Source: a virus
Length of the DNA: 42,235 bases
Virus record (IMG/VR): IMGVR_UViG_3300020215_000089
Span: 1-42,235 of that record
Strand: one strand, 5' to 3'
In this document: positions 128 through 42,235 of the stretch, one piece after another
Position numbering within the stretch: position 1 is the stretch's first letter
How the letters are laid out: every line of letters begins with the position of its first letter
The notes under the pieces: model-generated
Told to the model about the DNA's origin: nothing
The model's database searches: none
What the model saw: the letters and a program-made list of their open reading frames with translations, nothing else
Made by a program: the position numbers and the translations under genes

Positions 128-700
128 GTCCAAGTAGATGGCCATAAGCTCGTTTCGCTTGGTCACAATCTCGGGCGTTTGAATCTCAGCCGTGAGCAAA
201 AGCCACGCGGCAAAGGCGCACAGAGAAAGGTGGAACTGCGCCATGAGTGAGGAGGAATTAAGCGGGACGGACGTGTCCCCGGACATCGAAGCCGGCAGCG
301 GGTAGTGCCTCATGACGAGGGGTTTGGCCTCGACTGGGATGGGGCAAACACGAACCTGTTTCCGGGCCTCCTCGGGGTCGACGATGTAGTATTCAGGGGT
401 CCCAGTTTCGCTCGCCCAATCCTGCCCCTTGAGACGGGCTATTTCGTGCCGCGAAATCGGCTTAAGCTCTGCCCCGTCATACTGGACCCAATCCTCATAC
501 ATGAAGTCCGAGGGCAAATCGTAGGTTGCAAGGCCATCTTCGGTCGTCCAAGACTGGTCCCGCCAAAGGACTCTGGAATCCAGCGCAAACTGCTCTTGGG
601 CGCGGTCTAGCGCCGTGTTGTACTCGGCAGGCGTGTAGCGCGTCTGGTTCTTATCCCCGCACATTCGGGCGGTCTCCGTCCGCATCGTTCCGCGATTCAT
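47..700 (-). CDS. Virion protein, putative head-tail adaptor / tail tubular protein A analogue (assigned by synteny only)
   Basis: 217 aa. The ATG at 700 overlaps the stop of the upstream glycosyltransferase (ATGA). Its stop overlaps the TTG start of the 936-aa tail gene across the circular junction. It occupies the gp11-like slot of T7-like gene order. No motif recognised. Confidence 0.45.
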   Translation of the reverse strand: MNRGTMRTETARMCGDKNQTRYTPAEYNTALDRAQEQFALDSRVLWRDQSWTTEDGLATYDLPSDFMYEDWVQYDGAELKPISRHEIARLKGQDWASETGTPEYYIVDPEEARKQVRVCPIPVEAKPLVMRHYPLPASMSGDTSVPLNSSSLMAQFHLSLCAFAAWLLLTAEIQTPEIVTKRNELMAIYLDGKNRAIDTFKNTASAGFTIRGTRLWS

Positions 701-1938
701 TGGGTCACCTCAGTTGCGGGGACAAAAGGTTTTCCCGTCACAGCGTCAATGACGCCGTCCCAGGACTCCTCAACGACTTGGACATTGGTCTTGACCTGCT
801 GGGCATACTCGGGCGTCTCGATCTTCTTGACCTGCCCCCGGGAGACAATCTCGCGCAGGATCTTTTCGTAAGCGAACACGTTGCGGTCGACGTTAAAGTC
901 CTGCCGGGCCCGCTCATAGGCCGCATTGCCAATCTGCCGCCTCTTGGCCCGGTCGGTAATGAGGGACTCCAAGGCCGCCTGGAACCCGTCCGGGGTATCA
1001 GCCAGGAGCGCGTCTTTGCCGTTGACCAGCGTCTCCGCGAAGTGGCCCACATTGGACGCCACGCAGGGAACGCGCATGCCGGCGTATTCCAACCACCTAA
1101 GGTTTGACTTGCCCCGGTTAAAGGCATTGTCGACAAGGGGAGCTAGGCCGATGTCGAAACCCAGGGACCCCAGGAAGTGCGGGTATTTGTCGATACGGGT
1201 AAATTTCTTAACGCACTCAACGCCCCGAATCCCTTTGAGGAAGTCGGGGATTCCATGGACGAACACGAAACGCACGTTGGAATACTTGGCGAGGATGTTC
1301 TTAACGACGGGCTGGATAATGCGAAGGTCTTCGTTATGAGAGGCCCCACCCATCCAACCGATGCGGATTTGGCCCTTTCTCCCCCGCTTCTGGACGCGGT
1401 CCCAGACCTTGAAATCCAGGCTGTTGTGGACAACGGAGATGTTCTCGTTAAGGTCGCTGTAGACCTCTTTGAGGTAGTTGGTCGAGACAATCATCGCGTC
1501 GGCCGCCTTGAACTGCTCGACGGCCAACCGACGGAAGGGCGTCCCGGGGTCGTAGAAGGGCGCAGCCGGGTTGTAATCGGCGGTGGACAGCATGTTGTCG
1601 TCGATTTCGACGCAGATAGGGACCTTGCCCCCGAGGTGAGCGGACGCCTCTTTCATCGACAAGAACATGTCCAGGGCGGCGGGCGTATGGACCATGCCCA
1701 TAACCACGACGTCCGCCTTCCTAAAGTGGTCCCAAAGCTCGTTGAAGATCCTTGTCCTATGCGCCGGGTCCTCGATGTCCATTTCCCACGGGTGATTTTC
1801 GGTCAGCTCGTACTTGAACCAGGGCATATGGGACAGATACGCGCGGTTTCGGTGGGCCGCGACGTTCCAAGACCACATGCGGTAGTAACTGACTCCCGCG
1901 TTCGAGGTGGGGATATACAGGACTTTGAGTGGTGTCAT
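697..1938 (-). CDS. Glycosyltransferase, GT-B fold (family 1/4-like)
   Basis: 413 aa. The C-terminal half carries a GT1-type signature: GWMGGASHNEDL ... NRGKSNLRWLEYAGMRVPCVASNVGHFAETLVNGKDALL. Confidence 0.8.
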   Translation of the reverse strand: MTPLKVLYIPTSNAGVSYYRMWSWNVAAHRNRAYLSHMPWFKYELTENHPWEMDIEDPAHRTRIFNELWDHFRKADVVVMGMVHTPAALDMFLSMKEASAHLGGKVPICVEIDDNMLSTADYNPAAPFYDPGTPFRRLAVEQFKAADAMIVSTNYLKEVYSDLNENISVVHNSLDFKVWDRVQKRGRKGQIRIGWMGGASHNEDLRIIQPVVKNILAKYSNVRFVFVHGIPDFLKGIRGVECVKKFTRIDKYPHFLGSLGFDIGLAPLVDNAFNRGKSNLRWLEYAGMRVPCVASNVGHFAETLVNGKDALLADTPDGFQAALESLITDRAKRRQIGNAAYERARQDFNVDRNVFAYEKILREIVSRGQVKKIETPEYAQQVKTNVQVVEESWDGVIDAVTGKPFVPATEVTQ

Positions 1939-1966
1939 TTGGTTTTAGATCGGGCGCTTTAGGCCG

Positions 1967-2003
1967 AAAAAAAGCCTCTCACGCGGGGGAATGCGTGAAA
2001 GGC
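1967..2003 (-). terminator. Rho-independent terminator inside the late operon
   Basis: Minus strand has GCCTTTCACGC, a loop, then GCGTGAGAGGC (11 bp, one G-U) followed by TTTTTTT. It lies in the 138-nt gap between two glycosyltransferase genes. Confidence 0.7.
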
Positions 2004-2076
2004 TCCAAACAGCCTAAAGCGGGGCTCGCGGGTTTGGCCGCGATTCGGCGGGGATCAGCCGCCTACCCGATATTTG

Positions 2077-2802
2077 TTACGCGGTTACTCGATATGCCTC
2101 CAAGTATTTGGTCTTGAACGCCTTAACCTCTTCCGGTTTCCGGGTCTGAGAGATGCCAGACCCCAGGAGCCGATAAGCAGCTAAGACGTTGGGAACGAAA
2201 TCGAAGCGAACGCCAGACATGTAGAGCTGGGTCTGGAAACACCAGTCGTCAATTCCCAGGCGGGCCACGTCGCCGCCTTGGTAGGGGAACTTCAAAGCCA
2301 GTTCCTTGGTGTAAGCGGTCGTGCTGTGGACGATGCGGTTTTCTAGGGTTTCCAGAGCCCGTTCCTTGTTGAACACGTCGGCCGGAATCTCGCCCGCCTG
2401 ACGCCCGCAAGCGTCCATTTGAACGGCAGAGCCGTAGAGGAACTGAGCGCCTTTACTAAACTTCTCGGCCGTGATCTTGGCTCTGTTAGGTAACGCCAGG
2501 TCGTCGGCATCCAGGACCAAGATAACGTCGCCGGTCGCCGCGAGGTTGCCGACATTGCGGGACTCAGAACGGCCACGGTTGTGCTGATTGCGGATAACCC
2601 GGACGAGGGCCTCTTTCTTGGCCTGCAAGACCGGATCGACCCACTTGGCCGTAAGGGCCTGCTGCGTTGAGTCGGTGGAACAGTCGTCCACCACAATGAC
2701 CTCGATGTCGCGATACGTCTGCTCAAGGCAGGACTGAACTGCCTGGCAGACCCAGGCGGCGCTGTTGTAGCTGGGGATGACGAAACTAAGCCGCATTGAC
2801 AA
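2077..2802 (-). CDS. Glycosyltransferase family 2 (GT-A)
   Basis: 241 aa. LSFVIPSYNSAAWVCQAVQSCLEQTYRDIEVIVVDDCSTDST and LVLDADDL are classic GT2 motifs. Confidence 0.85.
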   Translation of the reverse strand: MSMRLSFVIPSYNSAAWVCQAVQSCLEQTYRDIEVIVVDDCSTDSTQQALTAKWVDPVLQAKKEALVRVIRNQHNRGRSESRNVGNLAATGDVILVLDADDLALPNRAKITAEKFSKGAQFLYGSAVQMDACGRQAGEIPADVFNKERALETLENRIVHSTTAYTKELALKFPYQGGDVARLGIDDWCFQTQLYMSGVRFDFVPNVLAAYRLLGSGISQTRKPEEVKAFKTKYLEAYRVTA

Positions 2803-4255
2803 CCTCCAGGACCTTGGCCGGGCTTAGCGCCTGGCGGTAGTAATCGACGGCCTTTTGATTGGGACCCTCTTTGGCCAGCTTGCGGAGCCGCTCAACCATG
2901 GACACGATAAACTGCTCGTCCGTCACGCGGTCATCAAGGAACCCGGCATAAGGGCTCTGGACGTTCGAGACGACGTGACGGCCGGTTACAAGCATCCGCT
3001 TGAGCGCCGGTGACATACAGCGGTCAACCCAAAAGTGGATAACTCCCGTGTAGTCCTCGATTTTGTGGACGCCCCCGGCCGTGTCTATGTCGATGTCCGG
3101 GCACGCTCGCTTGATGGTCGACAGCGCGTGCTGGTACTGAGCCGACGCATCGACCAGGAATTTGGGCGTCTCGGGCATCGGGGGAATTTCCCCCGCATGG
3201 ACGATGGGCAGGGGAAGGATCTGGGTCTGGAAACCAGCCTTGTCCATGATCCGTTGAGAAGCCTTGTCCTCAACGAACATCTTGAAGGCTTGATTAAACC
3301 GTCCGGTGTATTCCTCTAGGGCCTTGAGCGAGACTGCATGATAAATCTCCTCGACGTTGTCTTTCGTCCAGAAGAGGACCTTTTTGTGCTGGGGGCCCCA
3401 CAAGGACGCATGAAGCCCAGCAACCCCGGGATTGAGACTAAAACCGATCTGGATAATGGTCTTGTAGTGGTTCGGCTTGTCATTGGGGCGGTCCTCATAG
3501 TCCGCGTCGATGAGCTTGGCCAGGGCAATCCCGTCGTGCTTGTCGGACAGGCTCGTAACACACACTTCACGGCAGGGGATCTTATGCTTGGCGCGGACCT
3601 TGTCCTTTCGACCTAGCCAAGCCTCGGGAGTGCAGCCCTTACCGCTGATGGACTCAGGCGTCGGGTAGGCCGTCGAGAAGGCATAGCCGGCCAGATACTT
3701 ACCCACACCGCCACGCTCGACCACCGACAGCCAAAAATCCCAGTCCTGGAGGGATTCCAGGTCCTCGTCCCAGAGCCCCACCAGCTCACGCCGCAGCGGG
3801 AAACACGTCGAGATGTAGTTTGAAACCCGAAGGAGCCACGGATCAAAAGGCTCTGAATTGATGGCCCCGCGCTCGCCGAAGAACTTATAACCGCCATAGA
3901 CGAAGCCGACGTCCTTATTTCGGTCGAGAATATCGACCCAGTTTTTAGCCGCGTGGGGCTCAATCTCGCAGTCGGAATCCCAGAACACAACGTAGGGGGT
4001 CTGGGACGTGTGCTTAAAGCCCTCGTTTCTCGCCTTGCACGCCCCGCCGTGGTCGATCTGGACTATCTTGTGATCGGGCCACTTCTTCATGAGCCTGGCA
4101 ATGAGTCGGGCCGCGTCCTCGTCTGCTCCATCGAGGACAAAAACCGCTTCCCATTCCTTGAGCGACTGAGCCAAGAGGGATTTAATGCACCGCTCCAAGA
4201 TTTCGTGCTTGGGCTTATAGACGGGCAGGATGAAGCTGAGCCTAGGCGTGTGCAA
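2786..4255 (-). CDS. Two-domain glycosyltransferase: N-terminal GT2 plus GT-B-like C-terminal half
   Basis: 489 aa with a TTG start. The N-terminus has LSFILPVYKPKHEILERCIKSLLAQS...VFVLDGADED and WDSDCE. The C-terminal ~250 aa contains MLVTGRHVVSNVQSPYAGFLDD, reminiscent of GT1 C-domains. Confidence 0.7.
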   Translation of the reverse strand: MHTPRLSFILPVYKPKHEILERCIKSLLAQSLKEWEAVFVLDGADEDAARLIARLMKKWPDHKIVQIDHGGACKARNEGFKHTSQTPYVVFWDSDCEIEPHAAKNWVDILDRNKDVGFVYGGYKFFGERGAINSEPFDPWLLRVSNYISTCFPLRRELVGLWDEDLESLQDWDFWLSVVERGGVGKYLAGYAFSTAYPTPESISGKGCTPEAWLGRKDKVRAKHKIPCREVCVTSLSDKHDGIALAKLIDADYEDRPNDKPNHYKTIIQIGFSLNPGVAGLHASLWGPQHKKVLFWTKDNVEEIYHAVSLKALEEYTGRFNQAFKMFVEDKASQRIMDKAGFQTQILPLPIVHAGEIPPMPETPKFLVDASAQYQHALSTIKRACPDIDIDTAGGVHKIEDYTGVIHFWVDRCMSPALKRMLVTGRHVVSNVQSPYAGFLDDRVTDEQFIVSMVERLRKLAKEGPNQKAVDYYRQALSPAKVLEVVNAA

Positions 4256-5063
4256 GTTGTCTCTCCAGGTTGGAATAGTGGAAGCGGTATGTAGAAAACG
4301 GGCCAGGATAATTGGCCGGGATGAACTTAAACCCCTGACCGTCCTTGAACGTCACCCGGGGATGGGCAAGGGCAACGGCGCGCGCCTCCTCGGCGGTAGA
4401 ACCCTGGTTGATGCAGCACTTAACCATGCGGTCAATACGCCTCTCTAAAGGCCGAACGTCCGAGAAGTGCCAGACCTCAAGACCAGAATCATCGACCTCG
4501 TAGGGGTAGCGGTCGAAGGCTTGGCCGTGGAACTCGTGCGAGTCTCCCGTTATCTCGGAGAAATAGACGTCCTCCTCCACAGCGCCATAAAATCCGTGGT
4601 AATGGGCTCCCAGGTCTGGATTCCTTAGCCGGTAGATGTTCTTCCAGTACGCCCCCCGCCCCTCGATAATCTCGAAGAGCTGGCCTCCAGGCTCGCCGGC
4701 GAAACTCCGAACGCGCGTCTTGAGCGCCACGGCCTTGGACGCTTTCAGACAAAGAATTTGCTCGGGATTGAGGACGTACATGTCTGGATGGAGAAACCAC
4801 GCCAGGTCGGTGTCTAGTGACCACATGCACTCATTGAAGATACGGACGTAGTCCTCTTGGAGGTTCTTGGGGTCACGCCCACGGACTAGCTTGATCTTGT
4901 GGCCAAATGGCGTCTGCTTGATGGCCTCTATGATTTCGAGCGTCCCGTCCGTGCTGTTGCCGTCAAACAGACACACCTGGTCAATGAAAGGCAGGATGCG
5001 GAGCAAGTGCGCCGCGATCCACGGGGCCTCATTCTTAATGAGAGTGAACGTGCCCACGCTCAT
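4242..5063 (-). CDS. GT2-like glycosyltransferase
   Basis: ORF 4242..5111 trimmed to the ATG at 5063, which forms an ATGA overlap with the upstream stop. FTLIKNEAPWI...LFDGNSTDGTLEII resembles the GT2-like family. Confidence 0.6.
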   Translation of the reverse strand: MSVGTFTLIKNEAPWIAAHLLRILPFIDQVCLFDGNSTDGTLEIIEAIKQTPFGHKIKLVRGRDPKNLQEDYVRIFNECMWSLDTDLAWFLHPDMYVLNPEQILCLKASKAVALKTRVRSFAGEPGGQLFEIIEGRGAYWKNIYRLRNPDLGAHYHGFYGAVEEDVYFSEITGDSHEFHGQAFDRYPYEVDDSGLEVWHFSDVRPLERRIDRMVKCCINQGSTAEEARAVALAHPRVTFKDGQGFKFIPANYPGPFSTYRFHYSNLERQLAHA

Positions 5064-5590
5064 CGGATGGCCACCACATTGAGCGACACAAATTTCCCGT
5101 CCGTGTTGCACCGCATCCGGCTACAATCGTCGGGATTGCCTATCGGGAACTCTTCAACCTGGGACACCTCCGAAAACCCAGCCACGCGGAGGAGATGCTT
5201 GAGCCGGTCGAAGTCAAAACCGGCGTAATGGTATGCCGTCTTGTAGCCCTGGTCGCCCCAAAGGAAGTTGACTACCCAGTCGGCCATCCCGTGCTTGAGG
5301 TAAAGTTCTACAGCCCGCTTAAAGTCAGGCACGCCGACGTAGAGGACCCCGCCCTTGCAAAGAACCCTCGCCCACTCTTTGAGAACGTCCACAGTCTTTG
5401 GGTGCGGGAAGTGTTCCAGGACGTGGGATGCGTAGATTTCCGACACTTCCCCATCTTTGAAGCGGGAAAGGTCGGAGATATCGCCTACGATGTCCACGCC
5501 CCTATGCGGGTCGCAATCCATCCCGGTAAAGCCAGCGATTGGCTTCTCCCGGCAGCCGAGGTTGAGCTTGATGGCGGATTTCACGGGCAT
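5060..5590 (-). CDS. Class I SAM-dependent methyltransferase
   Basis: ORF 5060..5626 trimmed to the ATG at 5590. Motifs are KLNLGC, DIVGDISDL, ASHVLEHF and GGVLYVGVPD (Methyltransf_11/23-like). Confidence 0.75.
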   Translation of the reverse strand: MPVKSAIKLNLGCREKPIAGFTGMDCDPHRGVDIVGDISDLSRFKDGEVSEIYASHVLEHFPHPKTVDVLKEWARVLCKGGVLYVGVPDFKRAVELYLKHGMADWVVNFLWGDQGYKTAYHYAGFDFDRLKHLLRVAGFSEVSQVEEFPIGNPDDCSRMRCNTDGKFVSLNVVAIR

Positions 5591-6873
5591 GTGCAATTCC
5601 CCGATGCGTCGACGGCGGAGGTACACTTAGCCAGGATGTTGGATGAGTTGAGGCACAAGGCCCCGCCAGTCGTCGGCGAACCCGTGCCAGACAAGCCAAT
5701 GCCGCCGCCCGAAGGCAAGGACACGACGCCCTTGGCACCGGACGAATACCGCGTGATCGACCCGCCGTTGTCGATTCTCAAGCCGTCGTTTCCGGCCGCG
5801 TTCATCGCGTCGAGGTAGGTCGTCCCAGCGCCGTAGGCACCGACGCTGTTACCCGTGCCGACGGACTGGATTTGGCCGCCAGCCTTGCTGACCGTGATGT
5901 TATCGACGGCGATGATTCCGCCCGTTACCGTGCCGCTAGAAACGGCCGTCCGGCCCCAGGAAAACGCCCCGTCAAGACGGATTCCCGTTTGCGTCCCCGT
6001 GCCGATGGCGATGAAGTTGTCAGAGCCCATCCGAAGGGCCGTTATGTCGTCGGTGTTGGCCGCGTTGCGCCAAGCGATTGGGAAGCTATTCCTAAGTCCA
6101 AGTCCGCCATTGGTCGCGGCACTCTGACCTAGCCGGATGTTCGACACGGTTGAATAGATCGTGTCGAAATAGGCGTTTGAATGGTTGAGAATGCCGTAGA
6201 TGGTCGATGTCGCCGTGCTTGACTGCGGGCCGTCGATCTCAAGTCCAACGCAAGGCCACGTCCCCTTGGTTTTGTCGTCGGACGTGCAGCCCATGGCGTG
6301 GAAGTTGTTGACCTGGACGGGCTTGTAACCGGGCCCCGTGGACACAACCAACTGAGACGACGCGACACCCTGGAGAATGGCCGAGTCGGCCATGTTGGAC
6401 CCAACCTGGATGATCGGATTAGCCACGATGGACCACAGGTTGTTGGACTGAGAATCCAAGTAATTACCAAGCAGGTCAGGCCGGTTGGCGGCACCGTTGA
6501 CTCCGACTCCAAGAATCAAGTTCTTATGCGTCGGGCTTCCCGGATAACCCGCGTTAGAACCAACCACAACCCCGTTGAGGCTGATTAGGACGTGGTGGGT
6601 CCCCGTCGTGCCGGCGATGACAAAGGCCCGCATACCGGCGTCCCGATGGATTCCCAAGGCCGGATCGTTGGCAAAGCCTAAGACAGGGTCGCCGGCCGAG
6701 CCATCGGATAACGTGGCCGCCGAGAAAGAGGCGTCAAACTGGCCGTTTGAGTCCCGCAGCGGGATGGTCAGCGGGGTAGACTCCGAATCGGCAGTCACGT
6801 TTGACGCCGGATTTGTAGTAATCCCAAGCGCCAGCGATGGCAACAGTAGGAGGGCTAGAGTTTTCACGGGCAA
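5581..6873 (-). CDS. Fibre/spike-like protein, long paralog, with signal-peptide-like N-terminus
   Basis: ORF 5581..6909 trimmed to the TTG at 6873. The N-terminus is (M)PVKTLALLLLPSLALG-ITTNP. TPLTIPLRDSNGQFDASF resembles the RD-x-G-x-F motif of phage fibre N-termini. The centre is Gly/Ser/Thr/Asn-rich. The C-terminus is a shared Cys4 module, ...ALCLNSSNILAKCTSAVDASGNCTCP. Confidence 0.6.
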   Translation of the reverse strand: MPVKTLALLLLPSLALGITTNPASNVTADSESTPLTIPLRDSNGQFDASFSAATLSDGSAGDPVLGFANDPALGIHRDAGMRAFVIAGTTGTHHVLISLNGVVVGSNAGYPGSPTHKNLILGVGVNGAANRPDLLGNYLDSQSNNLWSIVANPIIQVGSNMADSAILQGVASSQLVVSTGPGYKPVQVNNFHAMGCTSDDKTKGTWPCVGLEIDGPQSSTATSTIYGILNHSNAYFDTIYSTVSNIRLGQSAATNGGLGLRNSFPIAWRNAANTDDITALRMGSDNFIAIGTGTQTGIRLDGAFSWGRTAVSSGTVTGGIIAVDNITVSKAGGQIQSVGTGNSVGAYGAGTTYLDAMNAAGNDGLRIDNGGSITRYSSGAKGVVSLPSGGGIGLSGTGSPTTGGALCLNSSNILAKCTSAVDASGNCTCP

Positions 6874-7499
6874 GTGCAATTCCCCGATCCGTCCCCAGCC
6901 GACGTGCATTTGCTCAGGACGTTCGACGAGTTAAGACACAGCATTCCGCCCGTAGTGGGCGCTCCCGTGCCGCTAATGGAAACTCCGCCGCCTGCGGGAA
7001 GAGTGATTACGCCCTTGGCACCCGACGAATAGCGCGTAATAGCCCCCCCGTTATCAATGCGGAGACCGTCGTTACCCGCAGCGTTCATGGCGTCCAAGTA
7101 AGTCGTTCCAGCGCCATAAGCGCCCATGTTGGCCGCGCTGCCGACAGCCTGAACCTGGACGCTCGCCTTAGTCGCCGTGATATTTCCCGACACGTTGAAT
7201 GCGGCATTGGACCCGTCCACCGTGGCCACTCCGCTTGACACGTGCAGGCGGGTATTGGGCTGGAGCGTGCCAATTCCCACATTCTGGCCAACGGTCTGGA
7301 TGGTGTTTGTGTTGACGGTGATCGTCGTCACATCCAAATCGGCAATCGCCGCGTTAAACTGACCGTTCGCATCGCGCAGAGGGATGGTCATGGGCGTGCT
7401 ATCAGAGTCCGCCGTGACGTTGGAGGCTGGGTTGGTCGTAATCGCCAAAGCCTGGCCTCCGATCATGATGAGGGCCGCAAGGGCCAAGAGCTTCTTCAT
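6864..7499 (-). CDS. Fibre-like protein, short paralog, with Sec-type signal peptide
   Basis: ORF 6864..7532 trimmed to the ATG at 7499 (GGAGG, then 5 nt). It begins MKKLLALAALIMIGGQALA-ITTNPASNVTADSDSTPMTIPLRDANGQF. The C-terminal ~85 aa are nearly identical in protein to the neighbour 5581-6873. Confidence 0.6.
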   Translation of the reverse strand: MKKLLALAALIMIGGQALAITTNPASNVTADSDSTPMTIPLRDANGQFNAAIADLDVTTITVNTNTIQTVGQNVGIGTLQPNTRLHVSSGVATVDGSNAAFNVSGNITATKASVQVQAVGSAANMGAYGAGTTYLDAMNAAGNDGLRIDNGGAITRYSSGAKGVITLPAGGGVSISGTGAPTTGGMLCLNSSNVLSKCTSAGDGSGNCTCP

Positions 7500-7544
7500 T
7501 CCAGCCTCCGTAACTTCGTTTCGATAGTTCATGGCTTCAAGGCC

Positions 7545-7568
7545 GCCGCCCCCATTTCTGGGAGCGGC
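7545..7568 (-). promoter_or_regulatory. Stable GAAA-tetraloop hairpin just 3' of the capsid gene
   Basis: Minus strand reads GCCGCTCCCA-GAAA-TGGGGGCGGC (10 bp, one G-U). No U-tract follows, so it is more likely an RNA stabiliser or processing element than a terminator. Confidence 0.35.
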
Positions 7569-7584
7569 AGCTTCAAACCATCAA

Positions 7585-8673
7585 CTACACCAGCTCGTGG
7601 GTCGCGAGGATGCAACCCGCCGAGGGATTCAACACCGCTCCAGCCATGCGGACCTTGAAGGCCACCGTGCTGTTGAGGTGGTAAGGATCGTTGGTGGACT
7701 GCGGGCCGGGACGAGTGATGATGAACTTCACCGCACCGCCAAGCTCGGCCGCCGCCAGACACCCAGAGCCGAAAATGGGCGTCAGGTTGACGGAGTGAGC
7801 CGCGACGGCGTAGCGCGGGCAGTTGGCGGACTCCAGGAAGCGGACCTGGTGGACCGTCGCCACCTCGTGCTTGTACATGGTCTGTTTCGGACCCTCGGCG
7901 TAGTTGAGATGCCACTGCTTGAAGTCCGAGTTGCCCAGCATCGTCGCGATGGCGTTGGGATGGGCGATGGCCACATACTTACCATCCGACATCGGATCGA
8001 CGTTGAGCCGCTTGAGGCGAGCAACGGCCTTCCGCACGCCGATGGGGCCAAGGCGGGCAGAGATGGACGGAGCCGTCTTGGACACCGCCGACAGGCGAGC
8101 CGCCGACGTGCCGAAGACAACCGGCAAGCCGAACTGGAGGCTGTTGGCAGTCGTGCCGGTGTTGGCGCAGAACGCCGACGCCAGAACCGACATCCACGCC
8201 GACAGGATCTTGGTCTTGGTGTCCGCGAGCTGACCGACCTGGACGCGGGCGGCCGCGCCCGAGCCCTTGAACACGGCGTACTGGAGCGCGTTGTCCACCG
8301 TCAAGGCCGCGCTGTTCTCGATCTCACGCATGGCACCCTCGTCGACATCCAAAACCGCCGTCTGGCGAACCAGGTCCGTGATCTTGAAGTGCCGGCCGAA
8401 GGAGTTGATCGAGACATTGACCTTCCGCGAGGAAAGGGCAGTCGCGGCATTGGCGGACGCCTCAGCCAGGAAGGAAGACGCCGCAGCGATCCTGCGGAAG
8501 CCGTTCCAGGTGATCTGAGTGCCAGACCCCTGCGGGATGGGGTAAATCTGACCATCCATCTGAGGGACCTGGTAAAACCAGACCTTGTCGTAGAGCGCCC
8601 GCATGGCGCGCCGCGAAAAGTAAGATTCCAGTAGGTTGTCGTTGTTTACGGTGCTAGTATTTGCGTCGGCCAC
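7585..8673 (-). CDS. Major capsid protein (HK97 fold, podovirus type)
   Basis: 362 aa directly after the scaffold-like gene. IPQGSGTQITWNGFRR...SRKVNVSINSFGRHFKITDLVRQTAVLDVDEGAMREI resembles N4-gp56/T7-type capsid proteins. This is from memory, not searched. Confidence 0.75.
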   Translation of the reverse strand: MADANTSTVNNDNLLESYFSRRAMRALYDKVWFYQVPQMDGQIYPIPQGSGTQITWNGFRRIAAASSFLAEASANAATALSSRKVNVSINSFGRHFKITDLVRQTAVLDVDEGAMREIENSAALTVDNALQYAVFKGSGAAARVQVGQLADTKTKILSAWMSVLASAFCANTGTTANSLQFGLPVVFGTSAARLSAVSKTAPSISARLGPIGVRKAVARLKRLNVDPMSDGKYVAIAHPNAIATMLGNSDFKQWHLNYAEGPKQTMYKHEVATVHQVRFLESANCPRYAVAAHSVNLTPIFGSGCLAAAELGGAVKFIITRPGPQSTNDPYHLNSTVAFKVRMAGAVLNPSAGCILATHELV

Positions 8674-16693: not shown

Positions 16694-16812
16694 CTCCCCT
16701 CCGTCGCCTGAGCCTTGGGGGCGGGGCGGCCGTCGCAGATAAGGTGCATGCCAAGCGACAGGCACATCCCGCATTTGCAGACCTCGTGACCGCACTCGCG
16801 ATCTTCGTTCAT
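16690..16812 (-). CDS. 40-aa Cys-rich micro-ORF
   Basis: MNEDRECGHEVCKCGMCLSLGMHLICDG... GGGAGGGG precedes the ATG. Both ends form ATGA overlaps. Confidence 0.35.
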   Translation of the reverse strand: MNEDRECGHEVCKCGMCLSLGMHLICDGRPAPKAQATEGR

Positions 16813-17399
16813 CGCCCCTCCCGCGCGTCCGGGGCGGCGGCCTTGATGTTCCTGAAAATCGAAAACATCCTCGTCGCCCGCTGGACGCCAGTTACGACGG
16901 CGATGAGCCCAAGCAAGTCCCACTCCCCGCGCTTGAATGACGGGTACTTTGTGTCCAGGACGCAGAGATACCCGCCCGGCTCCAAGACGCGCTTCGCCTC
17001 GCGCATAAACCCGCGCATGGGAAACGGCTTGCATCCGTATTTCTTTGAGTCGGCCGCCGAATAGGGAGGGTCGGACAGCACCAGGGAATAGCTGTTGTCC
17101 GGGAACGGAAGAGCGTCGGCTGGGGCCTGGACCTTCGGGCATCGAACCTCGTCAACGTGAAGGTCCACGGTCATCCCCGGCCCTTTGATGGTGCCGCTGG
17201 GGCAATGGAGTATCCGATCATGTGGGATCCCAGGGAACAGGGCGAGCGCCCGCTCCACGAATCCGCGCGGGTATTGGCCGTAAAGAGTCACCTTCTGATA
17301 CGCCGTCCCGCAGTACCACACCCCGTAAATCCAGCCCTTATCCTCGACGGTGATGGGGTACTTGCTATAGGTCTTGTTCCAATTCTCGACTGAAATCAC
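16809..17399 (-). CDS. DNA methyltransferase (N6-adenine / N4-cytosine class, DPPY motif)
   Basis: 196 aa with LVLSDPPY (motif IV) and an upstream ILHCPSGT segment resembling motif I. Confidence 0.8.
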   Translation of the reverse strand: MISVENWNKTYSKYPITVEDKGWIYGVWYCGTAYQKVTLYGQYPRGFVERALALFPGIPHDRILHCPSGTIKGPGMTVDLHVDEVRCPKVQAPADALPFPDNSYSLVLSDPPYSAADSKKYGCKPFPMRGFMREAKRVLEPGGYLCVLDTKYPSFKRGEWDLLGLIAVVTGVQRATRMFSIFRNIKAAAPDAREGR

Positions 17400-31693: not shown

Positions 31694-32710
31694 GTGCCAG
31701 GACTCATTAAACGCGGGAAGGTCTGGTACTCGGACATCCGCCTCAACGGGCGGCGGGTCCGCAAGCCCCTAAGCACTGATAAGGTCGTCGCCCAGCAGAA
31801 GCTCCGGGACCTATCCGACGAGCGCCATTCCGTGAAATACGGGGCGGGCGGGGACATGCGCTGGGGGCCGTTCAAAGAGAAATACCTAGCCTTCTGTCTC
31901 GTCGATAAAAAACCATTTACCGTCGTACGCACGAAGGTCTCCCTAGGTCATTACGAAAAGTTCGCCAAGCCAAAGACCCTCTCGGACGTGACCCCGGAAA
32001 CCCTGGAGCAGTTTAAGGGCCACAGAAAGGCGCAGGGGATTGGGAATGCCACGATAAACGTAGACGTGAAGAAGGTAAAAGCCCTCATGCGCCGGGCGAT
32101 GCTCTGGGGTTATATCGACAAGTGGAACGGCGCGGCGGTTAAGGAACTGCGGGAGACGCGCAACCGGGAGAGATTCTACACGGTCGAGGAACTAAAACGA
32201 CTCCTCGACGTTTGCCGGGCCAAGAAATACGGCTTTTACCAGTGGGAGACGGTCTGCCTGCTGGCCGCCCAGGCGGGGCTGCGAAGATCCGAAATCTACC
32301 ACCTTGCCTGGAAGGACATCGACCTGGAGTCCGGGATGCTGCACGTCTCCTCAAAAGAGGGCTGGGACCCCAAGACCGACAAGTCCAGCCGGCACATCCC
32401 GATTGCCAAAGACCTCGCCAAGCATCTCAAGGGCCTGAAGCGATCAACCCCATGGGTCATTGGCGAGCGCCCGTCCAAGTCCGTCATGTCCGCCTACTTC
32501 CAGAAAATCAGCCGCAAGGCCAGGCTAGACGGGAACCTCCACACCCTGCGCCACACCTTCGGAAGCCACCTAGCCCAAGCCGGCGTCCCCCTTCACACCA
32601 TCGCCAAGCTAATGGGGCACTCGACGACGCGCACGACGGAACTCTACGCCCACCTAGCCCCCAAGGACCTCAAGTCCGCAATCAGCAGGCTTCCCGGAAT
32701 CGGCCTTTAA
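31694..32710 (+). CDS. int: Tyrosine integrase
   Basis: 338 aa with a GTG start. The catalytic region is RRSEI...HTLRHTFGSHLAQAGVPLHTIAKLMGHSTTRTTELYAHL. Confidence 0.9.
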   Translation: MPGLIKRGKVWYSDIRLNGRRVRKPLSTDKVVAQQKLRDLSDERHSVKYGAGGDMRWGPFKEKYLAFCLVDKKPFTVVRTKVSLGHYEKFAKPKTLSDVTPETLEQFKGHRKAQGIGNATINVDVKKVKALMRRAMLWGYIDKWNGAAVKELRETRNRERFYTVEELKRLLDVCRAKKYGFYQWETVCLLAAQAGLRRSEIYHLAWKDIDLESGMLHVSSKEGWDPKTDKSSRHIPIAKDLAKHLKGLKRSTPWVIGERPSKSVMSAYFQKISRKARLDGNLHTLRHTFGSHLAQAGVPLHTIAKLMGHSTTRTTELYAHLAPKDLKSAISRLPGIGL

Positions 32711-35131: not shown

Positions 35132-35299
35132 CTATGACCGCTGCATTATGACGATGGCGTCGATTGCGCGGTTAAACGCACGCATGGCATAAAGGGCCTG
35201 GCAAGAGACGTAAATGGACAGCGCCGCCAGACACGCGCACAACAACTCCATGAGCAGGAGAAGGCGCGGCATGAGCTTGTCCGTTTTTCTTCGCCCCAT
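35132..35299 (-). CDS. Small single-TM membrane protein
   Basis: Trimmed to the ATG at 35299, which forms a TAATG junction. The sequence is MGRRKTDKLMPRLLLLMELLCACLAALSIYV... Confidence 0.45.
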   Translation of the reverse strand: MGRRKTDKLMPRLLLLMELLCACLAALSIYVSCQALYAMRAFNRAIDAIVIMQRS

Positions 35300-35631
35300 T
35301 AGTCCCCCACACACGGGTATTTCTGCTCACAGTAGAGCGGGTCGAAAGGACGCTCCAAGTGGCAGATTTCATGCGGCAAACAGCCCATGTACCGCTTGCC
35401 GATAAAGATGGTTGCCTTGCGGCCAAATTGACCGGGTTTGAAACACGCTACCGGCTTGTGTTTAAGGGGCTCGCCCCGGTCATTCTTGGGGCAGATGGCC
35501 GCACAGTGGTTGCCCACGGCGATAGAGTCACAGGCCAGCACGTTGTAGTCGAAGTAACGGAACCGCTGGCAGTTGGCCGACTTCCAGGGCGTTGCACATC
35601 CGGTCAACAGCAGGATGGCTAGGAGTCTCAT
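35299..35631 (-). CDS. Cys-rich lipoprotein with HExxH motif
   Basis: Trimmed to the ATG at 35631, which forms an ATGA overlap. MRLLAILLLTGC contains the lipobox LTGC. The protein has LPHEICHLERP and about 10 Cys. Confidence 0.6.
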   Translation of the reverse strand: MRLLAILLLTGCATPWKSANCQRFRYFDYNVLACDSIAVGNHCAAICPKNDRGEPLKHKPVACFKPGQFGRKATIFIGKRYMGCLPHEICHLERPFDPLYCEQKYPCVGD

Positions 35632-36251
35632 TGAGCCCCAAAACAAGAGATATACACCTGTGTAAAATCGAAAAACGAGACATTCTTTAACGTCGAAAAG
35701 CTCGCCTGATCTACCGCCTTTGCCTCTGAGAGGTGGCAAGACGACGAGTTGTCATCGGTCGTGTATTGCACCGTGCAGAAACAGGCGTAATTCGTGTCTG
35801 CATACGCCTTGGCGAAATTCACGACGTAATTCCCTGTCGACATTCGGCTCGTCGAAGTGACGTTGATGTCGTACACCGACGCACCCGTCCCTCCGGTAAT
35901 GACGGCCAACACAGAGGCAAAGGAGCCCTGGTAGAGGGCATTTGCCGTAGACGTGGCCGGGGCGATACTGTTTACTGTCATCGTGGACGAGTTGACGAGG
36001 TTGAACGTCCCGGAAATGCTCAGGTTTGACGCCGATGAGTTGCCCGTCATCGAGACGTTCGCCGTGAATGTGGACGCAGCCGTCGCCTCGAAGCCTCCCT
36101 GGAATGTCGGTTTGCCCGTCAGCGTTGGCCGCCCGCTTTGCAGTTCACGGATGTCTAGCCCCAGGTTTTTGACCTTCTCGTCAAACGCAGGACTGTAGGT
36201 CCCGGACGATTGGGCGGCGGCAAGGGTCGCCGACAGGAGGAGGAGGGACAT
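35628..36251 (-). CDS. Short tail-fibre-like protein with signal-peptide-like N-terminus
   Basis: MSLLLLSATLAAAQS-SG at the N-terminus, then LTGKPTFQGG and Ser/Thr/Asn-rich repeats. It occupies the fibre slot after the internal-protein genes. Confidence 0.5.
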   Translation of the reverse strand: MSLLLLSATLAAAQSSGTYSPAFDEKVKNLGLDIRELQSGRPTLTGKPTFQGGFEATAASTFTANVSMTGNSSASNLSISGTFNLVNSSTMTVNSIAPATSTANALYQGSFASVLAVITGGTGASVYDINVTSTSRMSTGNYVVNFAKAYADTNYACFCTVQYTTDDNSSSCHLSEAKAVDQASFSTLKNVSFFDFTQVYISCFGAQ

Positions 36252-37621
36252 CAAGGGAGCGCGGGCCTCTCCCTGCGGCTCATATACGCTTGCTCCAGGG
36301 CCGAGGCTGTAGCGGCCTGCGGGGCAACGCGATAGACAGCCCCGGGAACTTTTCCCAAAAGCGCCGCACCCTTTAGCGCCGTACCATAGGCCAACGGGGA
36401 CACCACCGCCGCGCCGCCCAGGCCACCCAGGACAGCGCCAACCGCAGCACCCGGAACACCACCAATAGCCCCGCCCGTTGCAGCGCCGGACGTAACCCCG
36501 GAAGTAAGCGCCCCCCAGAATCTGGCTACGTTGGGCTGGCCGTTGATGTTGCGCGGCAACGCGGAGCCAAAGTCGCCGGCAACCTCATTTTCCCAGGCCG
36601 CCCGCCTTGCCGCCCGCCACTCGGGATATCCCGGGGGCTGGATCTGCGGATTTTGGTAGGGAATCTTCTGACCCGCGATATAGGTAAACTTCGTTTGAGG
36701 ACCGACCGGCGGCCCGCCCTTTTCAATGAAATCGTCAAACTGCGTCTTGAGGCCTTGCGCCTGCTCGGATACTTGCTGCGCCATCTCGACGCCACGCGAG
36801 CGCATGTCCCGGATGATTCTTCCCGCTTGGCTGGCATTTACGGCCTCTTGGATTGATAGCGTGCCGTCGCGCAGTTTGTTGTAAGCGTCTCGCATCGTGT
36901 CCATGGCCCTGGAAACCGTGTCGAAGGGGTCATCGGACTTGGCGATGAACTCCCTCCGCGAAGTGGTCCCAGAGGCCGAGTGGAAAGAATCGTAAGCCTT
37001 GGACACCGCATCGTCGGACGGAGCGCGAAGCAACAGACTCGGATCAGCGGCCACCGCTGCGCCGGACTTCTCATCGACGTTGGCAAAGAGCTTGAAAATT
37101 GCCCCACCGGCCTTATTCAGGGCCGGGCGGACGGCTCGCACGCCAGCGCCGATGGCCTGCCCCGCACCCTCACCCGCCGCGTTTTCCAATCCCGCCCGGT
37201 TGACCTGTCCCAAGACCTCACCCGCAGGCGTGAACTCCCGCCCTGTGGCGGCATTATTGGCCTGAACGAGGGCTTGCCGGGCCGATTCCATGCCCGTCGC
37301 GCCAATGTAAGCCCCGCCAAGTCCAGCCAGGGCCACTCCGGGCAGGCCAAACGGAGCCCCATACGGAGCCGCCGCCGCAGCCCCCGCCATTGCACCCGCC
37401 GCCGCAGGCGTGGCCCGCGCCAAAGTCCCCAGGAGTCCGGTCGGACGGTTGCTTAGAATGTCGGAATCGGAGCCAACGGACTGGCGCAAGACGTTCCCGG
37501 CCCCAGCCACGGATGCCTCAATAAACGATGGCTCCTCTTTCGTCTGGGCGAGTGAGTAGCCAGGCGGCAAATCACGGGTTTGCGGAGCCTCGGAATATCC
37601 CGGAGGAAGTTCGCGCTTCAT
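36251..37621 (-). CDS. Internal virion / ejection-like protein (Gly/Ala-rich, glycine-zipper segments)
   Basis: Trimmed to the ATG at 37621, which forms an ATGA overlap. Assigned by composition and by position after the nozzle-like gene. Confidence 0.45.
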   Translation of the reverse strand: MKRELPPGYSEAPQTRDLPPGYSLAQTKEEPSFIEASVAGAGNVLRQSVGSDSDILSNRPTGLLGTLARATPAAAGAMAGAAAAAPYGAPFGLPGVALAGLGGAYIGATGMESARQALVQANNAATGREFTPAGEVLGQVNRAGLENAAGEGAGQAIGAGVRAVRPALNKAGGAIFKLFANVDEKSGAAVAADPSLLLRAPSDDAVSKAYDSFHSASGTTSRREFIAKSDDPFDTVSRAMDTMRDAYNKLRDGTLSIQEAVNASQAGRIIRDMRSRGVEMAQQVSEQAQGLKTQFDDFIEKGGPPVGPQTKFTYIAGQKIPYQNPQIQPPGYPEWRAARRAAWENEVAGDFGSALPRNINGQPNVARFWGALTSGVTSGAATGGAIGGVPGAAVGAVLGGLGGAAVVSPLAYGTALKGAALLGKVPGAVYRVAPQAATASALEQAYMSRRERPALP

Positions 37622-42164: not shown

Positions 42165-42235
42165 AGTCGCGTCCCCCGGATCGTGAATCCAGCCGAAGCC
42201 GTGTTCTTAAACGTGTCGATCGCACGATTCTTCCC
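42109..42235. repeat. Second copy of the terminal overlap (= 1-127)
   Basis: Identical by direct reading. Confidence 0.95.

Follow-up and report, generated by a model that had tools for sequence, protein, structure and literature searches.

The viral DNA of IMG/VR record IMGVR_UViG_3300020215_000089, all 42,235 nucleotides (nt) of which were analysed here (the window), encodes a cassette of four glycosyltransferase (GT) genes and one methyltransferase (MT) gene between the genes for its major capsid protein (MCP) and its head-tail adaptor. Comparison with related loci from metagenomes points to this cassette as a core component of the head-neck module that has long been inherited vertically in a large clade of uncultured podoviruses, and we consider it on balance probable that the encoded enzymes glycosylate the virion protein(s) of the phage step by step in the cytoplasm and cap the glycan by O-methylation. 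To our knowledge, experiments have demonstrated glycosylation of virions by phage-encoded enzymes in no more than a few actinobacteriophages, and the phenomenon is usually regarded as rare. The new aspect is a virion-glycosylation-type cassette that forms a clade-wide head-neck core in podoviruses and includes a clade-specific bifunctional GT-A/GT-B enzyme.

Enzymes encoded between the capsid and adaptor genes

In window numbering, which is used throughout, the slot is bordered upstream by the MCP gene (7585-8673, 362 amino acids [aa]; phrog_1357 major head protein, E 9e-28, and a weak match to PF25209) and downstream by the adaptor gene (47-700, 217 aa; PF24175 SU10_adaptor, 55.4 bits versus a cut-off of 27), and the morphogenesis genes as well as the capsid-adaptor block are all on the minus strand. 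The interval of 6,884 nt holds seven genes, namely those for two fibre-like proteins (par1 and par2) followed by MT, GT289, GT489, GT241 and GTB, which together provide five GT domains and one MT. An enzyme inventory of this kind had been proposed in a preliminary description made from the nucleotide sequence and its open reading frames (ORFs), and searches of Pfam and PHROG as well as structure searches confirmed it.

GT241 (2077-2802) is a canonical soluble GT2 (inverting GT-A) enzyme that scores 101.6 bits against PF00535 (cut-off 23.3) and has conserved D98-x-D100 and D185/D186 residues, while the N-terminal half (residues 1 to ~220) of GT489 (2786-4255, 489 aa) scores 73.1 bits against the same family with conserved D93xD95 and QDWD motifs; on PF00535 score and DxD motif, both fall into the CAZy GT2/GT-A class. 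Matches to the N-terminal half of GT489 include the GT2 enzymes WrtF, K4CP, RmlT, TarP and SpsA, and also GalT1 (5hea). The C-terminal half of GT489 (residues ~225-489) adopts a compact, GT4-like GT-B fold in an AlphaFold2 (AF2) model (pLDDT 93.5 for the whole protein, 93.9 for residues 225-489), and this model and Foldseek bear out the earlier suggestion of an additional GT-B-like half in the 489-aa protein. The Foldseek matches of this half are SenB, the Actinobacillus minor glucosyltransferase 8xsg, SdgB, GtfC, Gtf3 and BshA, at E values down to 4e-6, TM-scores of 0.5-0.66 and about 10% identity, that is, at the level of fold only. Several of these top matches (SdgB, GtfC and Gtf3) are cytoplasmic protein-glycosylating GT-B enzymes, a likeness of the modelled fold that would favour the glycosylation of virion proteins.

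The last cassette gene, GTB (697-1938, 413 aa), encodes a second enzyme of the GT4-like GT-B fold, with matches above cut-off to PF13524 (41.9 bits), PF13692 (34.7 bits) and PF00534 (28.8 bits), a match to phrog_7162 (E 3e-40), PDB profile matches to the GT4 C-domain and, in the homologue alignment, invariant residues that include K277 and E284. GT289 (4242-5063; 273 aa when started at the ATG at 5063) is GT-A-like but divergent: it scores 21.6 bits against PF00535, under the cut-off of 23.3, and has HPD at the position expected for DxD, hhalign places its first ~100 residues on the GT-A half of GT489 with a probability of 89% (95 columns), and its profile retrieves SpsA (1.6e-4) and GmaR (2.3e-3) from the PDB. 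MT (5060-5584, 174 aa) is a class-I S-adenosylmethionine (SAM) methyltransferase (PF08241, 32.6 bits versus 21.2; phrog_6636), a small Methyltransf_11 protein that has no DNA-MT domain and is kept across the relative loci, and we infer that it O-methylates a sugar. The catalytic motifs of the cassette vary little or not at all among homologues.

None of the five enzymes contains a transmembrane (TM)-like segment (maximal 19-residue hydropathy below 1.5), and all five are predicted from sequence to be soluble. In NCBIfam no enzyme matched near any equivalog or curated cut-off, and the matches covered only the generic nucleotide-binding half; donor and acceptor are, therefore, not readable from homology. 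The window contains no flippase, polymerase, undecaprenyl-phosphate (Und-P) transferase or nucleotide-diphosphate (NDP)-sugar gene, as had been noted before, and genes for GtrA, GtrC, a priming phosphoglycosyltransferase or lipid-carrier enzymes were likewise absent from the genome.

The cassette genes are tightly packed within the late operon. Overlaps of 4 nt (GTGA or ATGA) join par1/par2, par2/MT, MT/GT289 and GTB/adaptor, and longer overlaps join GT289/GT489 (14 nt) and GT489/GT241 (17 nt), the two uncoupled junctions being the gaps of 85 nt between MCP and par1 and of 138 nt between GT241 and GTB. The earlier claim of translational coupling throughout thus holds for six junctions and fails at these two structured gaps. 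Since the essential adaptor and nozzle genes lie downstream on the same strand and overlap, late transcription must cross the cassette. The block is, as proposed initially, part of the late operon and is necessarily co-transcribed within it from capsid to adaptor.

Conservation and co-divergence of the cassette

A search of related phage genomes had been suggested as a check, and we found the same cassette in nearly all loci that could be informative. The GenBank phage collection contained no close capsid relative and no match to GT489 at E < 1e-10, and an IMG/VR scan with the single MCP sequence gave no match. An MCP search of representatives returned 510 homologues, and a second IMG/VR scan, with a 7-sequence MCP alignment of the closest homologues, yielded 43 loci with MCP identities of 25-54%, many of them on contigs of 40-42.6 kb. 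The order MT-GT289-GT489-GT241-GTB-adaptor-nozzle-like was present in all 17 loci that are closed by an adaptor or nozzle gene (17/17), and the same cassette order was found in ~30 of the 31 loci that continue for ~3.4 kb or more downstream of MCP, the sole exception (L046, MCP 28% identical) having no cassette gene in ~10 kb past MCP. An NCBI contig of 41.4 kb (with one extra GT) and an ENA contig from Hainich groundwater share the layout. In many relatives the first cassette gene starts 0-60 nt after the MCP stop codon, and the ATGA overlap between GTB and adaptor is widely kept. Homologues of GT489 form 344 clusters (the longest contig among the best 120 listed is 43.9 kb) and those of GTB form 674. 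The clade is a large one of uncultured podoviruses of ~40-44 kb, known for example from groundwater and other metagenomes and represented by hundreds of protein clusters.

The enzymes co-diverged with capsid, portal and adaptor. Relative to MCP distances, the Mantel r was 0.87 for GT489, 0.81 for GTB, 0.78 for GT289, 0.74 for GT241 and 0.54 for MT, compared to 0.90 for the portal and 0.89 for the adaptor, and the mean pairwise identity of the enzymes (38-49%) is not below that of portal and adaptor (38%). In GC content, third-position GC (GC3) and codon usage the cassette matches TerL, adaptor and nozzle. The preliminary description had viewed the block as an island spliced into the operon; because its order is conserved clade-wide, its enzymes co-diverge and no anomaly in GC, GC3 or codon usage is seen, we abandoned this view, and a recently inserted island is rejected by composition and comparative genomics alike. 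On sequence comparison, the five enzymes are a core of this module that is old and has been passed on vertically.

The same comparison bears on a different target for the enzymes, namely the host envelope. Prophage-encoded TarP and seroconverting phages modify host surface polymers, and the cassette could analogously remodel an O-antigen unit, capsule or exopolysaccharide, a teichoic-acid-like polymer or an S-layer glycan on the cytoplasmic face, possibly for superinfection exclusion or to block the re-adsorption of progeny. The window phage has temperate-type genes (integrase at 31694-32710, ERF and NinG), as have the temperate phages in which GT2 enzymes of the Gtr type (P22/SfX GtrABC) or TarP are found, its GT2 domains have weak matches to PglI, WcaA, TuaG, EpsD/E and TarP-type enzymes, with GT241 also matching 'GtrB-like' PHROG families weakly, and sugar-tailoring genes vary among its relatives as they do in surface-polysaccharide loci. 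However, these matches are far under equivalog cut-offs and limited to the generic nucleotide-binding half (to phrog_841, for example, only the N-terminal ~120 residues match), the C-terminal TM helices of GtrB are missing, and so are GtrA, GtrC, flippase, polymerase and priming phosphoglycosyltransferase. Unlike a separately promoted moron near int/att, the genes overlap within the capsid-adaptor stretch, are co-transcribed with capsid and adaptor and have no promoter excess of their own, and unlike the sporadic, serotype-driven morons they keep their order and content and co-diverge with the capsid across MCP identities of 25-54%. Moreover, the architecture of GT489 was found in none of 185,579 GTDB species representatives, in which only its GT-A half had matches (25-30% identity). 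We, therefore, regard envelope remodelling as unlikely, and the absence of TM segments and Gtr machinery, the operon position and the co-divergence uphold the earlier preference for virion glycosylation over O-antigen conversion. Despite the temperate-type genes, no prophage copy of the cassette was detected in the GTDB representative genomes, and thus no host could be assigned from them.

A free or carrier-bound methylated oligosaccharide, or a glycosylated small molecule acting as a virocell metabolite, is another conceivable product, as the matches of the enzymes include SenB, BshA, the tetrahydrobiopterin glucosyltransferase, MftF-like GTs and small-molecule O-methyltransferases. Nothing in the genome suggests a pathway for an aglycone, though, and the strict linkage to capsid and adaptor and the co-divergence with structural proteins would be hard to explain, making such a product quite improbable.

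The slot also varies among the relatives, which carry further sugar-nucleotide and tailoring enzymes between capsid and adaptor. A DegT-type aminotransferase is encoded at six loci (L047, 11888-13186; also L035, L037, L045, L049 and L050), an enzyme of the GDP-mannose-dehydratase/epimerase family in L010 (12985-13860) and L034, a NodU/CmcH carbamoyltransferase in L041 (17925-19562) and L042, a radical-SAM enzyme in L044 (6870-7925), a methyltransferase resembling CmcI and rhamnosyl O-methyltransferases in L048 (4560-5165) and an additional GT in L059 (8486-9202); homing endonucleases also occur in the slot (L010, 11164-11709; L040, 11080-11628; L043, 10792-11403). The earlier statement that NDP-sugar synthesis genes are lacking is, therefore, correct for the window genome and does not extend to the relatives, which have DegT, epimerase/dehydratase, carbamoyltransferase and radical-SAM genes in the slot. 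In L047-L049, the most distant subclade that bears the cassette, no separate MT gene was detected, and the GT-B protein has an N-terminally fused Methyltransf_11-type domain (L047, 15511-17355; L048, 7661-9628; L049, 15297-17081). This MT/GT-B fusion is a Rosetta-stone link between the MT step and the GT-B step.

A sugar-enzyme block between MCP and adaptor is also present in MW202801.1, an uncultured podovirus from Manatee Spring with an SU10-type module. Its slot encodes a radical-SAM enzyme, a GT2, a PhyH dioxygenase, an MT, a NodB-like protein and a GT-B, the last of which shares 28% identity with GTB and runs into the start of the adaptor gene; this set differs from that of the window in most of its enzymes, however, with neither GT489 nor GT289, and the MCP is only 22% identical. 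We also noticed that an unannotated 237-aa ORF of this phage (13161-13874 in our locus L001; 24288-25001 of the record) is an SU10-type adaptor (PF24175, 33.9 bits).

Phage GTs that decorate 5-hydroxymethylcytosine (5hmC) or 5-hydroxymethyluracil (5hmU) are well known, and DNA hypermodification, in which the GTs would glycosylate modified phage bases and the MT would act in the same pathway in the manner of T4 or of MT/TET/GT systems, was also considered. DNA-modification systems that combine an MT, a dioxygenase and a GT have been described (10.1101/2023.12.21.572611; PMC13326640), and the slot of MW202801.1 holds both a PhyH-type dioxygenase and a radical-SAM gene. A Pfam search over the whole window genome revealed no nucleotide-modification gene, including dCMP/dUMP hydroxymethylase, TET/JBP, DNA C5-MT and nucleotide kinase, such that the partner base-modifying enzyme of the T4, MT-TET and 5mYOX-GT pathways is missing. 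The lack of a DNA-MT domain in MT and the location of the genes at the capsid-adaptor junction, outside the replication module, also argue against DNA as the substrate, for which five GT domains would be unprecedented, and we consider this possibility extremely slim.

A proposed glycan-assembly line and its candidate acceptors

Taken together, we favour a late-expressed, cytoplasmic glycan-assembly line that would have at least one virion protein of the phage itself as its substrate. Soluble GTs (two canonical inverting GT2 domains, one divergent GT-A-like enzyme, the compact GT-B fused to a GT2 and the GT4-like GT-B) would draw on host nucleotide sugars and add these in sequence straight onto Ser/Thr (or Asn) residues of a structural protein while the particle is being built. 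The class-I SAM MT would then O-methylate a sugar, probably the terminal one delivered by GTB, since MT and GT-B are fused in the distant relatives L047-L049. The outcome would be a particle coated with a short, methyl-capped oligosaccharide, which is likely to mask or stabilise the virion surface or to tune its adhesion, and relatives would diversify this coat through the sugar-nucleotide tailoring genes added to the slot. The order of steps, the identity of the sugars and the role of the glycan are what we infer from this gene set. The acceptor would be a virion protein, with MCP, a candidate favoured because of its adjacency, and the nozzle-like and fibre proteins as further possibilities.

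Known systems provide precedents for several elements of this proposal. For mycobacteriophage Corndog (cluster O), the gp35 MT and the gp36-gp38 GTs are reported to modify capsid and tail tube, and Che8 (gp110) and Myrna are further phages with reported virion glycosylation (Freeman et al. 2023, as cited in PMC11600133, PMC12363180 and PMC11256854). We checked the Corndog layout, in which the capsid gene is directly preceded by a gene for an O-methyltransferase and, after it, three for GTs, akin to the window in that MT and then tandem soluble GT genes lie inside the structural operon beside the major capsid gene. Virion-glycosylation systems of the Che8/Corndog/Myrna type are marked by soluble GTs, joined in Corndog by an O-methyltransferase, whose genes lie among or beside those for virion structural proteins, and the window phage has this layout. 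A GT set with an MT in a late operon, which the preliminary description had thought unusual, accordingly has an experimentally studied precedent in the cluster O mycobacteriophages (PMC11600133), with an MT and tandem GTs beside the capsid gene. Comparison of Corndog gp35-38 with the cassette enzymes gave nothing below E = 0.47 in blastp and nothing at E <= 10 in phmmer, and from this lack of detectable homology we take the two to be analogous rather than orthologous solutions. They also differ in other respects: Corndog is a siphovirus of Actinobacteria with its cassette upstream of MCP, whereas the window phage is an SU10-like podovirus with the cassette downstream of MCP, five GT domains including a GT-A/GT-B fusion, and a cassette that is a clade-wide, co-diverging core.

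The chlorovirus-type example is PBCV-1, in which A061L and the signal-less three-domain protein A064R (GT-GT-MT) are responsible for building the terminal part of the capsid N-glycan and for methylating it, in the cytoplasm (PMC9614988). Signal-less, cytoplasmic multi-domain GTs and class-I SAM MTs that act on a terminal sugar (A064R, A061L and A111/114R; PMC9614988) resemble the cassette as does the GT-MT fusion, seen here in the relatives L047-L049, and analogy with A064R suggests that GTB may add the terminal sugar and that MT may methylate the same sugar. The likeness is one without demonstrated homology to PBCV-1, a giant virus of eukaryotes whose MCP is of the double-jelly-roll type and whose genes are dispersed and expressed early. 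Finally, soluble GT-B and GT-A enzymes act sequentially on Ser-rich proteins in the cytoplasm prior to export in the case of SdgA/SdgB of S. aureus and of the accessory-Sec enzymes for serine-rich-repeat proteins, GtfA/B, Gtf3/GtfC and dGT1/GalT1; the top structural matches of the C-terminal half of GT489 include SdgB, GtfC and Gtf3, and its GT-A matches include GalT1 (5hea). Candidate acceptors of the window phage have Sec-like leaders as well (see below), yet the phage has no accessory Sec system and no serine-aspartate (SD) or serine-rich repeats, and its enzymes are encoded in a phage structural operon.

The two fibre-like proteins encoded in the slot had been put forward as acceptors. The par1 gene (6864-7499, with an alternative start at 7532) encodes 211 aa with the Sec-signal-like leader MKKLLALAALIMIGGQALA|ITT and a C-terminal motif of four Cys residues, and par2 (5581-6867, 428 aa) begins with a GTG that overlaps the par1 stop codon (GTGA). 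The proteins are 71% identical over the C-terminal 128 aa and 79% over the N-terminal 34 aa, and by sequence they appear to be true paralogs. Neither matched a family in Pfam, PHROG or NCBIfam, and the label 'fibre-like' is based on motifs and on the genomic context of a homologue family (P0002-P0007) that shares the leader and C-terminal motif with par2. This motif, GTGxPTTGGALCLNxxxxxxKCTSxxDASGNCTCP, is encoded at 6864-6960 and 5581-5680 in the window and is also found in P0002-P0007, L005 (10001-11038) and L008 (10001-11518).

An arrangement in the style of serine-rich-repeat (SRR) adhesins or autotransporters, in which the enzymes would serve to glycosylate par1/par2 and similar leader-bearing fibres before export, could be read from the position of these genes directly upstream of MT, to which they are coupled by GTGA, from their 28-29% content of Ser+Thr+Asn, their Sec-like leaders and even Cys counts, and from the resemblance of the GT489 C-terminal half to SdgB, GtfC and Gtf3, cytoplasmic glycosylating enzymes whose substrates are secreted adhesins. 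Against this, par1/par2 homologues are lacking in nearly all relatives that bear the cassette, with only short N-terminal matches in L010, L034 and L012, the P0002-P0007 fibre family occurs without any GT in unrelated podovirus and siphovirus structural modules (L008 and L005), and sequons in par1 and par2 are at chance level. The paralogs thus seem to be the lineage-specific, non-conserved part of the block and, since nearly all cassette-bearing relatives do without them, unlikely main acceptors, contrary to the earlier suggestion; we deem a dedicated role of the enzymes in their glycosylation improbable.

Beyond MCP, virion glycosylation could involve two further candidate acceptors encoded outside the slot. 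One is the 936-aa, post-adaptor 'nozzle-like' protein (39354-42164), which is rich in Ser/Thr/Asn and has a signal-like leader, and the other is a 208-aa tail fibre (fib208; 35628-36254; phrog_11355 tail fiber, E 4.5e-5), which has seven sequons and a signal-like leader. Sequons (N-x-S/T) of fib208 had been counted as seven among 15 Asn residues; we find seven among 14, compared to a mean of 3.7 in shuffled sequences (P = 0.04, uncorrected, with 17 proteins tested). Only fib208 is marginal in this respect; the counts in MCP, the 936-aa protein and the two paralogs are those expected by chance, and the idea of N-glycosylation sequons was rejected.

A survey of leaders across 17 structural-module proteins and two flanking ORFs detected a Sec-signal-like leader (a basic n-region, 10-15 hydrophobic residues and an AxA-like site) only in par1 (7499-7440), par2 (6867-6820), the 936-aa protein (42164-42110) and fib208 (36254-36200), all four of which have even numbers of Cys residues (4, 6, 12 and 4, respectively), with none in the internal proteins. 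Homologues (in L008, L010, L015, L021, L023, L033, L036, L052 and others) retain the hydrophobicity of the leader but not its sequence, as seen for 13 of the 17 homologues of the nozzle-like protein, for the fibre family and for further slot proteins of relatives. The four leader-bearing proteins are also the glycosylation candidates richest in Ser/Thr/Asn. A literature search on signal peptides of podovirus tail proteins returned nothing useful. Were these leaders genuine Sec signals and the Cys residues engaged in disulfides, the four proteins might be glycosylated in the cytoplasm and then exported, with the tail or fibre apparatus of the clade maturing in the periplasm or outside the cell. 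We know of no precedent for an obligate, glycan-dependent extracytoplasmic step in tailed-phage assembly, and consider this scenario very improbable.

Several points weigh against the glycosylation of virion proteins. The glycan is predicted from gene content, the searches revealed no cultured representative or host, the GT and MT folds are uninformative on the acceptor class, as their sequence and structure matches are generic, with lipid-linked glycans, teichoic acids and small molecules among the substrates of the matched enzymes, and homology to the experimentally validated Corndog enzymes is lacking. The phage is of the temperate type, a lifestyle in which genes for host-surface conversion are common, and the most obvious Ser/Thr-rich candidate acceptors have Sec-like leaders, which is odd for virion assembly in the cytoplasm. 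Sequon enrichment is marginal and no acceptor motif is seen clade-wide, and a terminator-like hairpin (1964-2006) splits the cassette in the window genome.

If the particles of this clade are truly glycosylated, glycan coats of tailed phages would be ancient and widespread beyond Actinobacteria and probably indispensable for the clade, and the cassette with its variable tailoring add-ons would be a ready system for studying the diversification of phage surface glycans. Such a glycan could influence stability, adsorption, grazing or immune recognition, and the cassette might be used for engineering glyco-decorated capsids.

Junction hairpins and other features of the genome

Both gaps of the block are highly structured. 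A GC-rich RNA hairpin at 7524-7588 (minimum free energy -46.8 kcal/mol, z = -7.7, with 0/200 shuffles as stable) covers the MCP stop codon, has no U-tract and may act as an attenuator, processing site or stabiliser that sets the ratio of capsid to downstream expression. For the 138 nt that separate GT241 from GTB, folding gives -71.1 kcal/mol (z = -7.8), and this gap includes the hairpin at 1964-2006, which resembles an intrinsic terminator (a stem of 12-14 bp and a loop of 8 nt, followed by U7) and implies attenuation or a requirement for antitermination. This gap is not present in relatives, where GT241 and GTB overlap. A consensus scan for promoters and terminators showed no excess and missed the 1964-2006 hairpin, which was revealed by folding.

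The first and last 127 nt of the window are identical (1-127 and 42109-42235), indicating a circular assembly of 42,108 bp, and the same genome was also recovered from several metagenomes as contigs of 42.0-42.2 kb. Once the repeat is removed, the 936-aa gene continues the operon over the circular junction, where it shares a 10-nt overlap with the adaptor gene; three genes for Gly/Ala-rich, internal-protein-like products lie between it and the fib208 gene, on the same strand. Upstream of MCP are TerL (13932-12349), the portal (12017-9987; PF23899 SU10_portal, borderline at 29.6 bits versus a cut-off of 30) and a scaffold-like protein (9684-8695), and with its SU10-type adaptor and portal and the order TerL-portal-scaffold-MCP-adaptor-nozzle the head-neck module is SU10-like. 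The protein in the scaffold position contains several linkers rich in Pro/Thr/Ala (e.g. PATAPATPVP, PVPAVPPSTPVPVSLSP and TPTPTGKTAKAPPTPVNPAP), and O-glycosylation of linkers of this composition is frequent in other systems.

The rest of the genome is of the temperate type, with a tyrosine integrase (31694-32710, plus strand), ERF, NinG and HNH genes, and homologues of ERF and NinG are encoded at L053 (6619-7383 and 11740-12273). No Rfam family and no tRNA was found in the window. A second class-I methyltransferase is encoded in the early region (16809-17399, minus strand, 196 aa; PF08241, 25.7 bits); with a BLASTP E of 0.03 against the cassette MT, it is not related to that enzyme and was rejected as its partner. 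A 146-aa ORF (35299-35739, minus strand) that overlaps the end of the fib208 gene encodes a lipobox-like MRLLAILLLTGC and 11 Cys residues, and from this sequence its product may be a lipoprotein, either o-spanin-like or an exclusion protein. A lipoprotein of this kind would hint at a diderm host, and the host of the window phage is probably diderm.

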